From assembly GCA_965116475.1 (NCBI GenBank), contig OZ220691.1, positions 3,232,001-3,296,000 of the forward strand: DNA of 64,000 nucleotides, read 5' to 3'. Numbering within the stretch: position 1 is the stretch's first letter; each line of letters starts with the position of its first letter. Source of the stretch: Gemmatimonadota bacterium (GTDB lineage Bacteria; Gemmatimonadota; Gemmatimonadetes; Palauibacterales; Palauibacteraceae). The translations under genes and the position numbers were made by a program. A model generated the notes under the pieces. The model ran no database searches and was not told the origin of the DNA. It was given only the letters and a program-made list of their open reading frames with translations. Below, one piece after another: positions 52,827 through 64,000 of the stretch.

Positions 52827-53594
52827 TTCCATAGTCCTGACGGCGAGCCGTGTACAGCACCTGCATGTTCTGGTGGAGAAAATCTCCTAAGTCATTGTAA
52901 CAAAGTGACATAAATCTATAGCGATGGATCTCGTTATCACTATTCTTATCACTCGGTGCTCCAACGGCGTGCCGAGCATGGGAAGGGGACGCGACGGGAC
53001 CCCGCTGGACGAGCACGGTCTGCGGCGGCGGGCGCAAGCGGCCCTCCGAAGGCCCGATGCGTTGGTATGTGGAAGGCCTTTTCACCAGTCCGGTCCGCTG
53101 AATCGCCGAATCTGAACAGGGATGGCGCTGTTCTGTACCGATCCGGGCCCGCAGTGCGAGAACCCGCCCCCAGAGGTGGCTGAACCGGCTTCATCCGACC
53201 TCTTACCCTAAGGAGACCGAGCCAGCTGCCCCGCTTGCTCCGCGTCCAGTGCACTGCGATCGTTCCCGCACCCGACGGGTCACGACCCCTCGTCCTCGCC
53301 CGTTTACTCGCCCCCGTTCTCATCTTGGTTGTCGCTGGACAGCGACCTCCGTTGGAAGCCACATGTCATGAGGCTACACCTCTACCGGGAACACATGGCT
53401 AGGGAGCTTGAGCAGCTCCCCGATCTGCGCGATCAGGGAATCCAGAGCTATGTGCTGACCACCGCCATTCTCGCAAGGCGGATCGACGACCGCCTTGGGG
53501 GCCGACTCCAAACTGAGCAGTTGGCGCCACACATCGGTCGACCGCTCAACTTTCGCGAGCTGCTCGGCATGCTCCTGCATTACGTGGAGGGTCG

Positions 53595-56249
53595 TCAGTT
53601 CGAAGCGGCCACGGCCCGGTACCCGGCCGTGTCCCCGAGCTGGTAGTCCTCGCCGGTGACCTGGAGCACGCGGATCCGGTACTGGGAGATCCGGTCGCGG
53701 TCCGGCACCCGGAACCTTAGAAGCGGACCGTCCTCGAGCGGGCCCGCCACGACGATCCGGTGCTTCCCGGAAGCGGCGGAGTGGTAGAGTTCGAGACCGA
53801 CAGCAGCCTCGACCGCCTCGATTTCGGGACCTTCGAGTTCGAGCAGCACGCCGACGGCGCGGCCGGCCGCCGGCGCCGTCCACTCGACGGTCAGGAACCC
53901 GGGGCCTCGTGGCGTGGCTGCCGGCATGGGCAACTCGACGGCCTGCGCACCCGGCTCCCGCGCGGCGGCGGGCGGCCCCGCGAGATCGCCGGTGCACGAC
54001 CAGGCCGTGGCCGCGGCGAGCAACACGGCCAACACCGCTCCGCGCGCGCGGCGGCGCCCGGCACCCGGCCGTCCGCGGCGCCCGTGGGACCGCCGGCGTC
54101 CGGCGGCGGCTGCGCCGAGCAGGAAGAACGCCGGGGACGCGGCACCGGGCTCCCCGGGCGTGCCGCCGCAGTCGGCCTCGCCGCTCCGGCAGCGCTCGAT
54201 CCAGGCCATCAGATCGCCCAGGTCGTACTCTCCGTTCCGGTTGCCGAGGCGGTCGAGGGCGTCGAGCTGGGCCTCGCTCAGCTCGCGCTCGCCGAACAGC
54301 GCCTCGGACGCCTGCTCCGGCGTCAACCGGTCCACCAGCGCGAGCAGGGCGTCCAGGTCCGCCGCGTCCTGCGCGGCCGCGTCTTGCCCGGCCACGTCTT
54401 GCCCGGCCGCGTCTTGCCCGGCCACGTCTTGCCCGGCGACGTCGCCCGCGGACTGCGGGATCGTGACCCTGACGCTCGGGGTCGCCATCCCGGGCGGGCC
54501 GTAGTTGACCGCCTTGTGTCCGATCACCGCCGACGAGGCGGTCGCGTTCTGTGCCACGGTCACGGTCACCTCCTTGTACCTGAACCAGTCCGTTCTCCCG
54601 TAGGACACCGAGGTGGGCGACGCCGTGACGCCCGCGCTGTCCGGCTGCGGCTCGATCGCCGCGCCCGCCGGGGGGTGGTGGTTGAGGCGCATGCGGTACG
54701 CGCCCGATCCGCCGGGCGCGATCGTGAGCGCCGTCTCCGACACGACGACCCCGTGCTCGTAGACCGGGTTGTCGCTCAGCCGGAGCTGCCTGAGGTTGGC
54801 CAGCTCGTTGATCTCCTCGTACGGAAAGCTCGTCAGCTGGTTGTCGCGCAGATTGAGTTCCTCGAGCGCCGCCAGCCGGTCGAAGACGCCGGCGCGCAGC
54901 GACCGCAGGCGGTTGTCGTCGATGTCGAGTTCCCTGAGAAGCGTCAGCTGGTCGAAGACGTTCGCGGGCAGCGACGAGATCCGGTTGCCGTCCAGATCGA
55001 GCATGGTCAGCGCACTCAGGTCGTCGAAGATCCCCGTCGGCAGCGACGAGATCCGGTTCCCGCTCAGGTCGACCTCCGTCACCGCCGTCAGGCCGTCGAA
55101 GTCGCCCGCCTTGAGCGACGCGATGTTCAGGTGGTTCAGCCAGAGTCCGCCCGAGATGGACGCCAGGTCGTCCGCCGTCACCCCGCCGCAGCCCTTCGAG
55201 CCGCCCAGCCACCCCAGGATGGCGTCGCGCACCTGGGGCGTGCGGCCGCAGATGCCGCCCGACGGCGTCCCCCGCACCTCGCGCGACGACTCTCCCGGGC
55301 CGGCCCTGTTGACGGCCCGCACCGCGAAGCGGTACTCGCGGTCGTTCGCGAGGCCCCCGACCGTGTACGTCTCCATGTTCGCCCCGCCCGCGCCGCTGCC
55401 CGGGATGCCGCGCCAGCTTCCGCCGTCCACCCGGTAGTCGTGGCGGGTCACGGGCGCGCCGCCGTTGTACGGCGGGAACCCCGGGTCGTCGCCCGGCGCG
55501 GTCCAGCTCAGCGTCACCTCGCGGCTGCCCGGCACCGCGGTCAGGTCGACCGGCGCGTCCGGCGCCCTCGCCGTCACCGTGCCGTCGACGATGGTGACGG
55601 TGACGGACCCGATCGCGACCGTGCCGTGATGGGCGGCGATGACGACCGTCTCGTCGTCCTCGGACTCCGAGTCGGACAGCGCGGCGAGCGTGACGCCGCC
55701 CGTGGTCGCGCCCGCCGCGATCGTGATGTTCGGCTCCGACAGCGTGTAGTCGCTGCCGCTGGTCGCCGTCCCGCCCAGCTCCAGCGTGACCGTCTGGACC
55801 GTCTCGAAGGTCGAGCCGCTGGTCTGGACCCATAGCCGCGTCTCCTCGCCCTCCCGCAACGTCGTCACGTTCGTCCTGATCTCGAGGTCGATGTCGTCGT
55901 CGGCCACCCTCACCTGCACGCTGCGCGCGGTGACCGACCCGTAGTCGCCCCCGCTCACGGCGTGGGACACCGTCGCCTCGTCGGCGTTCTTGTCGACATC
56001 CTGCGCCGCGCTCACCGTCACCGGCTGCGCCGTGTCCCAGTCGCCGGGCGCGAACGTCAGCGTCGGCGGAGACGCCGTCACATCGGAGTCGCCGCTCACC
56101 GACACGCCGATCGTCACCGTGGCCGTCGGGCGCGATTCGAGCGCCACCCTGTAGGTGCCGCTGCCGCCCTCCTCGATCGAGAGCGCCGTCGCCGAGACCG
56201 CCACGCCGCGCGTGTCGTCGTCGGTGATCGTCACCGTCGCGTCCGTCAC
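53595..56249 (-). CDS. C-terminal segment of giant surface protein (Calx-beta, FN3, LRR, EF-hand-like and terminal domains)
   Basis: Continues the Calx-beta repeat broken at ~56250; LSWTAP/YRFAVRAVN FN3; CGRTPQVRDAI plus LRRs; LDRLGNRNGEYDLGDL. Confidence 0.8.
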   Translation of the reverse strand: MTDATVTITDDDTRGVAVSATALSIEEGGSGTYRVALESRPTATVTIGVSVSGDSDVTASPPTLTFAPGDWDTAQPVTVSAAQDVDKNADEATVSHAVSGGDYGSVTARSVQVRVADDDIDLEIRTNVTTLREGEETRLWVQTSGSTFETVQTVTLELGGTATSGSDYTLSEPNITIAAGATTGGVTLAALSDSESEDDETVVIAAHHGTVAIGSVTVTIVDGTVTARAPDAPVDLTAVPGSREVTLSWTAPGDDPGFPPYNGGAPVTRHDYRVDGGSWRGIPGSGAGGANMETYTVGGLANDREYRFAVRAVNRAGPGESSREVRGTPSGGICGRTPQVRDAILGWLGGSKGCGGVTADDLASISGGLWLNHLNIASLKAGDFDGLTAVTEVDLSGNRISSLPTGIFDDLSALTMLDLDGNRISSLPANVFDQLTLLRELDIDDNRLRSLRAGVFDRLAALEELNLRDNQLTSFPYEEINELANLRQLRLSDNPVYEHGVVVSETALTIAPGGSGAYRMRLNHHPPAGAAIEPQPDSAGVTASPTSVSYGRTDWFRYKEVTVTVAQNATASSAVIGHKAVNYGPPGMATPSVRVTIPQSAGDVAGQDVAGQDAAGQDVAGQDAAAQDAADLDALLALVDRLTPEQASEALFGERELSEAQLDALDRLGNRNGEYDLGDLMAWIERCRSGEADCGGTPGEPGAASPAFFLLGAAAAGRRRSHGRRGRPGAGRRRARGAVLAVLLAAATAWSCTGDLAGPPAAAREPGAQAVELPMPAATPRGPGFLTVEWTAPAAGRAVGVLLELEGPEIEAVEAAVGLELYHSAASGKHRIVVAGPLEDGPLLRFRVPDRDRISQYRIRVLQVTGEDYQLGDTAGYRAVAASN
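54361..54443. repeat. 15-bp coding tandem repeat (AGQDV/AGQDA) x5.5
   Basis: GCC(G/A)CGTCTTGCCCG units; four of them form a 30-bp dimer x2. Confidence 0.92.
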
Positions 56250-62967: not shown

Positions 62968-63927
62968 ATGGATGAGCGCCGGTGCGGGGATCCGGAGGCC
63001 GCCGCCGGCCTCCTCGGCGAGTACCTGGCCGCCGCCGCCGACGGCTCGCTGAGCGGCAACACCGTGCGGGCGCTGAGGGGGGACCTTCAGCGGTTCGCGG
63101 CGTGGTGCGCGGAACGGGATCTCTGTCCGCTGCCCGCGCGCGCGGGGACGGTCGTGGCCTACATCGAAGAGGTGTCGGGCGACCGCGCGCCCGCCACCGT
63201 GAGGCGCCATGTCTCGAGCATCGCCGCCGTGCACAAGGCGGCCGGGGAGCGGAGCCCTTCGGAGCATGCCGCGGTGCGGCGCGCCCTCACGCGGATGCGG
63301 CGGCGGAAAGGGTCCCGGCAGACGCAGGCGCTGGGCCTGACCTGGACGCTCCGCCGGCGCCTGATCGAGGGCGGGGGCTCCCGACTCATCGACGTCCGCA
63401 ACCGCGCGATCCTGGCCGTGGCCTACGACGCCATGCTGCGCCGCTCCGAGCTCGTCGCGCTCGAAGTCGTTGATGTGAAGGTGGATAGGGGAGGATCGGC
63501 CTCCGTCCTCGTGCGCCGGGCGAAGAACGATCCGGAGGGCGGCGGGGCGGTGCTGTACCTACACCGCGACACCGTGAGGATGCTCAGGGAGTGGCTCGGC
63601 GCGAGCGGGGTCGGCAACGGGCCGCTCTTCCGCGCGGTGCGCAAGGACGGGCGCGTCGGCGCGGCTCTCCATCCGGGCCAGGTGCCGCGCATCTACAAGG
63701 CCATGGCCCGGCACGCCGGGCTTCCGCCGGAGGTGGTGCGCCGGCTCTCCGGGCACAGCCCGCGGGTAGGCGCGGCGCAGGACATGATCGCCTCGGGCAT
63801 CGAGCTGCCGGCGATCATGCAGGCCGGGCGCTGGAGGAACGTCCGCATGGTCCAGCGCTACGGCGAGCGCCTGCTCGCGAAGCGCAACGGAGCCGCCCAG
63901 CTGGCCCGGCTCCAGAAGCGCCGCTAG
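62968..63927 (+). CDS. Cre-like tyrosine recombinase/integrase
   Basis: N-terminal SAM-like domain; LRRSE, RRAKND, HSPRVGAAQDM, IMQAGRW, VQRY (R-K-H-R-W-Y); start may be upstream (62929 or 62887). Confidence 0.92.
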   Translation: MDERRCGDPEAAAGLLGEYLAAAADGSLSGNTVRALRGDLQRFAAWCAERDLCPLPARAGTVVAYIEEVSGDRAPATVRRHVSSIAAVHKAAGERSPSEHAAVRRALTRMRRRKGSRQTQALGLTWTLRRRLIEGGGSRLIDVRNRAILAVAYDAMLRRSELVALEVVDVKVDRGGSASVLVRRAKNDPEGGGAVLYLHRDTVRMLREWLGASGVGNGPLFRAVRKDGRVGAALHPGQVPRIYKAMARHAGLPPEVVRRLSGHSPRVGAAQDMIASGIELPAIMQAGRWRNVRMVQRYGERLLAKRNGAAQLARLQKRR

Positions 63928-64000
63928 AGATACGCCGGGCACGGATATTTTGGACGGATGACTCCGGCGGGTTATCGTTGCCACCGGGTACGATAGCGGT

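Follow-up and report, generated by a model that had tools for sequence, protein, structure and literature searches.

The 64,000-nucleotide stretch of DNA considered here, referred to throughout as the window (G000:C1:3232001-3296000), belongs to a genome that consists of a single contig of 3.62 Mb with a GC content of ~69%; the name Candidatus Palauibacter (Gemmatimonadota) is carried by the record titles of its same-genus relatives, and the stretch itself is present in sponge-metagenome runs. At its right end lies a gene for a Cre-type tyrosine recombinase, bracketed by two inverted lox-like sites and situated between a giant adhesin-like surface-protein gene and a kinase-regulator gene. In our assessment this arrangement is probably, if with considerable room for doubt, a self-inverting switch affecting the neighbouring genes rather than a cassette that shuffles or moves them. 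The original prediction for this region envisaged an element that moves, shuffles or switches adhesin-like genes. Switching is the function favoured here; shuffling of the shufflon or multiple-inversion type (Rci, Mycoplasma vsp or vsa) is rejected, as each module has two sites and none lies in or beyond the giant gene, and movement by the recombinase finds no support, its sites not being at the ends of the surrounding island.

The recombinase gene (62968..63927, plus strand) encodes 319 residues from an ATG at 62968, within a reading frame open from a TTG at 62887, such that the protein measures 319-346 residues depending on the start. The Cre-like catalytic strings HSPRVGAAQDM and IMQAGRW, to which the original prediction had drawn attention, are indeed present, and the only Pfam families matched are Phage_integrase (3.4e-15) and Phage_int_SAM_1. 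Cre is the best relative of solved structure (E 9.4e-30, residues 30-307 against Cre 39-332; phmmer, chain 7rhy_A), with XerD matched only at 5e-5 and the NCBIfam XerC/XerD models far under their cut-offs; the best phage matches are likewise P1-type Cre, at ~31% identity. All six of the Cre residues R173, K201, H289, R292, W315 and Y324 are identical in the recombinase, as counted by hand from the alignment. By sequence, the enzyme is assigned as a Cre-type tyrosine recombinase. A serine invertase of the Hin/Gin type was ruled out, there being no serine recombinase catalytic domain in the Pfam scan, and an integron reading was also rejected. The ATG that relatives share as a start (62904 here) is, as read by eye, in a different frame from the recombinase body and leads to a stop codon, in both copies of the gene in this genome; the start must be 62968 (319 residues) or the TTG at 62887 with a different N-terminus. 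The conserved block that precedes the recombinase start in the window is, in relatives, mostly coding sequence.

A 32-nucleotide (nt) inverted repeat brackets the recombinase gene at 62834-62865 and 63996-64027, its two halves being 94% complementary and perfect over 27 nt (62839-62865 and 63996-64022), and the second half crosses the end of the window. Each half is a near-perfect palindrome with ~13-nt arms around an asymmetric centre. The left site (62834..62865) reads ..GGTCGATAA CTGGTAG TTATCAACC.. and lies ~60 nt upstream of the likely start of the giant gene; the right site, at 63996..64000 in the window and continuing to 64027 (L004 11996-12027), is an inverted copy of the left and is followed by a T-run. 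The centre CTGGTAG of this clade is one base longer than the CTGTAG of most relatives. A single candidate core site had been predicted, and the core GGTCGATAACTGGTAGTTATCAACC at 62839-63, which occurs once in the window and is matched in 0 of 100 window shuffles, proves to be real, but it is one of two inverted sites flanking the gene, the other spanning the window end. Four such sites exist in the whole genome, two in each of two copies of the module.

These elements suggest the following mechanism. The module would comprise three genes, encoding a giant secreted repeat protein, the Cre-type recombinase and a cytoplasmic regulator that joins GAF-PAS histidine-kinase, receiver and winged-helix parts, with the recombinase gene placed in the divergent control region of the other two and bracketed by its own inverted lox-like sites. 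Recombinase dimers would bind both sites, pair them and swap strands within the identical central spacers. Given the inverted arrangement of the sites, the outcome would be inversion of the 1.13-kb segment that carries the recombinase gene, which in the more common state would read towards the regulator; in the flipped orientation it would read into the giant gene, with the recombinase 5' region facing the regulator. Because a flip would alter what lies upstream of both neighbours, it could serve as a heritable on/off or either/or switch. An effect of flipping on expression, the direction of that effect, and control of the giant gene or of the recombinase by the regulator are points that we infer.

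The association of these components recurs in other genomes. Of 35 other same-genus genomes, 4 encode close relatives of the recombinase (77-90% identity; one to five copies each), and a search of 25 further genomes of the same family or order gave none. All 12 same-genus loci, two from the present genome included, possess an inverted site pair and a divergent large upstream gene with adhesin-type domains, and 8 of the 12 have the same kinase-regulator downstream. A wider scan, in which one genome per species was taken and the best 80 of 148 relatives (56-90% identity) were examined, extended to metagenome-assembled genomes (MAGs) labelled Longimicrobiales/Palauibacter, Vicinamibacterales, Latescibacterota, Alphaproteobacteria, Gammaproteobacteria (Poriferihabitaceae, Foliamicus), Caldilineaceae and Poribacteria. 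In these 80 loci, a clear site pair was found in 68, the nearest upstream gene was on the opposite strand in 70, and an opposite-strand gene of at least 600 residues lay within 1.5 kb in 56, so that a repeated linkage of the recombinase to giant surface genes, whose absence would have counted against the original prediction, is supported. Among 32 sampled upstream genes, 25 encode Calx-beta, fn3, Cadherin-like, SWM, LRR or similar domains, five match no family and two are unrelated. The same regulator is adjacent in 43 of the 80 loci and 37 have no adjacent homologue; the alphaproteobacterial loci keep the sites and lack the regulator. Two plasmid-borne relatives (48% identity) both lie in toxin-antitoxin surroundings, with neither a site pair nor an adhesin context.

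Two lines of evidence bear on whether the sites are used. First, comparison of the two sites within each of 60 distinct pairs gives 1 mismatch in 364 spacer positions versus 210 in 1680 for arms and flanks, and the spacers are identical in 59 of the 60 pairs as against a mean of 7.3 and a maximum of 18 upon random re-pairing, a statistic that overstates independence since the loci are related. The spacers themselves vary, with 20 different ones across loci. This pattern, in which the crossover regions match while the arms drift, is the one that tyrosine recombinases require. Spacer polarity was considered as a marker of flipping and rejected, as both spacers point inward and inversion leaves that unchanged.

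Second, flipped copies exist. Relative to the regulator gene, 40 loci have the canonical orientation and three (L058, L063 and L067) are flipped. When L063 is compared with L069 (92-98% identical), both flanks align in reverse and the recombinase segment forward, with the joins inside both sites; L058 compared with L079 (97-99% identical) gives the same pattern, with both sites still present. In an all-against-all comparison of outer flanks, every match of a left flank to a reversed right flank involves L063 or L058, bar one 70-nt match. Because the nearest relatives of L063 and L058 are unflipped, these are counted as two independent flips; L067, which sits at the start of a chromosome record, is of the same lineage as L058 and was not counted separately. 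Together, the natural flipped copies and the strict matching of spacers make it likely that the recombinase is active. Inversions and empty sites had been proposed as checks on the original prediction, and both were found among relatives, the empty site being described below; in contigs of two runs, only the reference orientation was seen.

Other observations concern individual loci of this set. An IS256/Mutator-family transposase gene lies inside the L058 segment (4566-5873, equal to L110 11003-12310), between one site and the recombinase start, and is missing from a sister-genome sequence that is 99% identical. The chromosome record of genome G061 begins inside a recombinase gene (L109 1-1008; L108 is the record's end), by a flipped-type junction, and the recombinase open reading frame (ORF) continues abnormally, for ~85 extra codons, across the join. 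This join may represent an assembly artefact or break at a polymorphic or repeated cassette, or a real rearrangement, and for that reason it was not counted as an independent flip.

The same data bear on an explanation in which the palindromes are operators for a DNA-binding regulator, for example the neighbouring winged-helix domain, and the recombinase is inactive or acts elsewhere. In its favour, both sites are near-perfect palindromes within a promoter region, and the neighbouring gene encodes a transcription regulator. However, operators need no matched asymmetric centre, and here the centres match, in inverted orientation, in nearly all pairs while the arms drift; the flipped copies break exactly at the sites; and the alphaproteobacterial loci retain the sites in the absence of the regulator. 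OmpR-type domains, moreover, usually bind direct repeats. We regard the operator explanation as very improbable.

Several observations weigh against the self-inverting switch. Among the 43 loci that could be oriented, the preponderance of one orientation suggests that flipping may be rare, or the flipped state may be selected against. Both flipped lineages are partly decayed modules, one with a truncated regulator and the other with the insertion sequence, as are their unflipped relatives, and the L058/L079 lineage is rearranged further, the regulator-side homology ending after 1.5 kb and a second partial copy being present at the record start. Contigs of runs X7 and X8, one of them at a word depth of ~90, bridge both sites in the reference orientation only, and no strand-change joint is listed in them. 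This check rests on assembled contigs, raw Hi-C run X9 having no aligned read and X1 giving fragments only, and as evidence against a mixed population it is weak because contigs drop minority forms. With respect to expression signals, a sigma-70-like match (TTGATA, 16 nt, CACAAT; a match to consensus only) spans the left site and is directed at the giant gene; it is the sole such match and, as it spans the site, would survive inversion. No conserved promoter could be placed inside the segment by a consensus scan and an alignment of 49 loci. A terminator-like hairpin and T-run were found at the right site by consensus scan, and the T-run is not kept in the family consensus. Finally, because the giant gene is broken in the window, the window copy of the module may be out of use.

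The predominance of one orientation would also fit a reading in which the 1.2-kb unit of site, recombinase and site is a selfish cassette that settles in the control region between adhesin genes and regulators and flips there with no regulatory role. Such a cassette would be multi-copy and compact, as observed; pairs of regulator and giant gene exist without it; and the regulator is missing from the 37 loci mentioned above. However, no mechanism is known by which such a unit, its sites being inverted, could copy or insert itself, and neither a target duplication nor an empty cassette site was seen, nor is there a site remnant in the intergenic region of the pair that lacks a recombinase. Because catalytic residues and matched spacers are kept across lineages at 56-90% identity, selection appears to act on recombination itself. 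A selfish cassette is unlikely on this evidence, though it deserves to be kept in view, and the self-inverting switch remains the reading that we prefer.

The partner of the giant gene in that switch would be the kinase-regulator, which lies past the window (64177-66573) and was not noticed in the first reading. It encodes 798 residues with GAF, PAS, HisKA, HATPase, REC and Trans_reg_C (OmpR-type winged helix) domains and starts 150-180 nt past the right site. This genome holds three members of the regulator family, all adjoining a giant gene, and two of them belong to recombinase modules. The third (795 residues, 56% identity) is divergent from, and separated by 138 bp from, the gene for a 1607-residue Calx-beta protein that ends in a C-terminal module shared with the giant protein of the window, and has no recombinase (G000:C1:2692023-2699372; L124); a similar pair occurs in L022 at 563-6837. 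No site remnant was found in the intergenic region of the recombinase-less pair in this genome, where the alignment covers the coding part of the kinase only. Nearby, at 2.706-2.724 Mb, are three more genes with the shared C-terminal module. From these arrangements we infer that regulator and giant gene may form a functional pair, into whose shared control region the recombinase cassette would be set. The steady linkage to one sensor-regulator family suggests a regulated rather than purely random mode of switching, which would be unusual. GTGAC/GTCAC-like boxes at ~11-nt spacing are present in the conserved non-coding block before the regulator gene (L004 12030-12130, window 64030-64130), and a similar word, AGTGAGCGG, was seen by eye just upstream of the recombinase start (window 62925-62965). 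Such boxes may be candidate binding sites for the OmpR-type domain, a hint of control by the regulator.

The adhesin, recombinase and regulator genes together make up a 14-kb island of three genes (52873-66910), and the suggestion that the element may extend past the window was borne out by the right site, the regulator gene and the island end, all beyond 64000. The region beside a conserved RDD/SpoIIM gene was compared with that of 11 same-genus genomes, the eleventh of which ends at a contig end and is uninformative. From the ABC-2 permease gene (end 52826) to the right flank, the distance is 48-979 bp in 10 of the 11 genomes fetched and 14.0 kb here. Homology to the 10 genomes breaks off at 52872, just past the start of a small conserved gene, and resumes on the right at 66911-66916 in six genomes, at 67012 in two and at 67426 in two. 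The AT-rich far boundary of the original prediction is also confirmed, with a GC content of 0.51-0.54 at 52800-52999 compared with ~0.69 for the window. The best explanation for the locus as a whole takes this 14-kb region to be, most likely, a module gained by horizontal transfer.

The genome carries a second copy of 13 kb of the island (window 53640-66559), with the order unchanged, 1.8 Mb away at G000:C1:1471904-1484818 (L005 3904-16818; copy B). The copies are 97-100% identical outside a 1.2-kb patch close to the start of the giant gene (61150-62350, 59-89%), and the shared stretch stops, in both, within the final codons of the two outer genes, which face outwards; on the left this point is inside the common C-terminal module. 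Such a pattern points to gene conversion between the modules; the patch would then have either escaped the process or been overwritten from internal repeats. The right flank of copy B has no close orthologue in 35 same-genus genomes, where only partial matches of 64-75% were found; its ends could not be defined for this reason, and no empty site was found for it.

Acquisition and duplication on this scale invite the explanation that the recombinase is the integrase of a mobile island that moves the whole adhesin-regulator block from one genome or site to another, with inversion of its own gene incidental. Beyond the empty sites and the near-identical duplicate, up to six to seven recombinase copies per genome were found in the wider scan, and in a recombinase tree of 79 rows (two rows with internal stops dropped, taxa being MAG labels as given) rows labelled Acidobacteriota and Latescibacterota nest, with support, inside a Gemmatimonadota clade. 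In the same tree, a near-identical cluster is made up of rows labelled Gammaproteobacteria, Chloroflexota and Poribacteria. AlpA-family (Phage_AlpA) genes are found just past the 3' end of the giant gene in L023 (13968-14498), L026 (3923-4453), L027 (15567-16247) and L058 (11756-12379), which would also fit a mobile island; no AlpA-like gene is present in the genome studied here, however. The sites bracket the recombinase only and are inverted, giving inversion and not excision, and neither end of the island has another site at it or close by, the four sites named above being all that the genome contains. A 40-bp element at the left junction occurs nowhere else in the genome, and the likeness of the two copies ends inside the 3' ends of the outer genes, more in the manner of homologous exchange than of a defined element end. 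Compared with an integrative island, then, an empty site is found but direct-repeat sites at both ends are not. The island, the duplicate and the copy numbers show, as far as genome comparison can, that the module spreads. Nothing ties that spread to the recombinase, whose sites lie away from the ends of the island and, being inverted, could not support excision. We therefore hold the integrase explanation to be quite improbable, and return to the switch.

The target of the proposed switch is the giant adhesin-like gene, which runs on the minus strand, divergent from the recombinase. As predicted it is a real, modular and divergent surface-protein gene, but in the window it is split into three ORFs, a point missed in the original prediction; an intact gene (3059 residues) exists solely in copy B. 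Its Pfam domains comprise SWM_repeat, Cadherin-like, Calx-beta, fn3 and LRR. The N-terminal fragment (62104..62901, minus) is a 265-residue ORF with one SWM_repeat and a signal-peptide-like stretch, the likely ATG start at 62778 and the signal peptide having been read by eye. The middle fragment (56246..61831, minus; 1861 residues) contains five SWM_repeat and two Cadherin-like domains and internal 1.45-kb repeats, and the C-terminal fragment (53595..56249, minus; 884 residues) Calx-beta, fn3 and LRR domains followed by the C-terminal module common to other surface genes. Relative to copy B, the first frame break consists of two 1-nt insertions (56252 and 56260) and the second of several indels within 61478-62136, the latter contained in the divergent patch (61150..62350, minus) described above; these breaks may be mutations or assembly errors. 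The constant C-terminal module was correctly anticipated and occurs at no fewer than six places in the genome. The end of the protein (53800-54100, minus) has a Pro/Gly stretch, a hydrophobic run, an Arg cluster, a second signal-like hydrophobic stretch with Cys, and ~170 residues more. These ~170 terminal residues are the shared module and there is no Pfam match at 53800-54100; the end region may serve as a sorting signal, or may represent a small lipoprotein fused to the giant protein.

Decayed relatives of the giant gene had been predicted at 34.4-37.5 kb, and this was confirmed only in part. A 341-residue Calx-beta/LRR ORF (34551-35576) and two frame-shifted fragments of the C-terminal module (37307-37454) were found, with a cytochrome P450 gene in between; by sequence they look like the remains of another surface gene.

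The left edge of the island (52873..53594), from the interrupted conserved gene to where the giant gene ends, is non-coding and AT-richer, and neither of the two small ORFs there matches a Pfam family. The small conserved gene is split by the island, and ~500 bp of it are gone in this genome; its first codons lie within the 40-bp element (52833-52872), which is kept in six of eight compared relatives. A 283-residue ORF after the regulator gene (L004 14583-15434, window 66583-67434) appears chimeric. To the right of the regulator gene are RDD/SpoIIM, DUF58 and MoxR genes, which are housekeeping genes and syntenic in relatives. No phage, conjugation or transposase family was found in 30 further ORFs (27 left of the island, two at its left edge and the chimeric one past the window) or among the genes right of the island. 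The predicted lack of such genes therefore extends beyond 64000, where in place of a larger prophage, integrative and conjugative element or transposon there is a sensor-regulator followed by housekeeping genes.

A more ambitious version of the switch can be sketched, in which the system is a signal-gated memory: the GAF-PAS regulator would sense a host or environmental cue and set expression of the recombinase, a flip of the cassette would lock the eukaryote-like adhesin on or off in the progeny of the cell, and the module would be passed between phyla of sponge symbionts; dozens of natural, distinct Cre/lox pairs would be available as well. We consider this full scheme speculative and rather unlikely to hold in all its parts. 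The family is conserved among uncultured bacteria, most of them associated with sponges, whose labels span several phyla, and their surface proteins, with LRR, fn3, cadherin-like and Calx-beta domains, may be involved in interaction with the host. If the switch is real, a heritable switch acting on surface proteins would provide a testable handle on variation of the symbiont surface. The loci are also ready pairs of enzyme and site, with different spacers, for genome engineering, and the earlier suggestion of a new Cre-like tool pair is in this sense a reasonable one.

Site-specific inversion switches have been well documented in pathogens and in bacteria of the gut. In the full-text literature searched, which extended to neither subscription journals nor supplements, no published description was found of a Cre-type gene between its own inverted lox-like sites beside giant adhesin genes; the Cre-type, lox-bracketed form partnered with a giant adhesin was not found described. 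The closest enzymes are those of Cre/loxP (P1) and of Vika, Dre, Nigri and Panto, which belong to the same class, the identity to P1 Cre being ~31%. Cre/loxP likewise has two ~13-nt inverted arms and a short asymmetric spacer in a site next to the gene, and the sites described here end in ..CGATAA/TTATCG.., much like the ..CGTATA/TATACG.. of loxP. In contrast to Cre/loxP, in which a single site lies near the gene on a phage or plasmid, two inverted sites bracket the gene here, and the locus is on a chromosome, where its neighbours are an adhesin and a regulator. Cre-type enzymes with a nearby site have been catalogued, and the portion of that account available to us mentions neither sponges nor inverted bracketing (PMC10250229).

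The working layout is the same as that of the H-segment, although our system is not a member of that group, as it has a tyrosine recombinase of the Cre type and lox-like sites. In the Hin/hix H-segment of Salmonella, as in Gin, Cin and Pin, an invertible segment of ~1 kb carries its own recombinase gene between inverted palindromic sites, with a surface-antigen gene and a regulator adjoining. Hin is a serine recombinase and requires an enhancer and Fis. Tyrosine-recombinase inversion beside genes for surface structures, sometimes with a regulator alongside as here, is found in fimS with FimB/FimE, ipuS, the RecV switches of C. difficile and the invertons of Bacteroides; ipuS, acted on by IpuA/IpuB and located beside the UpaE autotransporter, is described in the accessible part of its source as a tyrosine-recombinase promoter switch (PMC6083910). 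In fimS-type switches, however, what inverts is a short promoter element that does not contain the recombinase gene, whereas here the recombinase is the cargo and no conserved internal promoter was found; the fimS-type repeats are short (7-30 bp) and not lox-like, unlike the lox-like sites of the present module. The pneumococcal hsdS locus reportedly has its tyrosine recombinase gene within the locus that it inverts. An hsdS inversion locus with the recombinase CreX/PsrA is reported, in the portion of the source available, for the pneumococcus (PMC7096588). Its repeats lie inside the coding hsdS genes and reshuffle specificity domains, whereas the sites of the present module are intergenic and would bring about no exchange of coding sequence.

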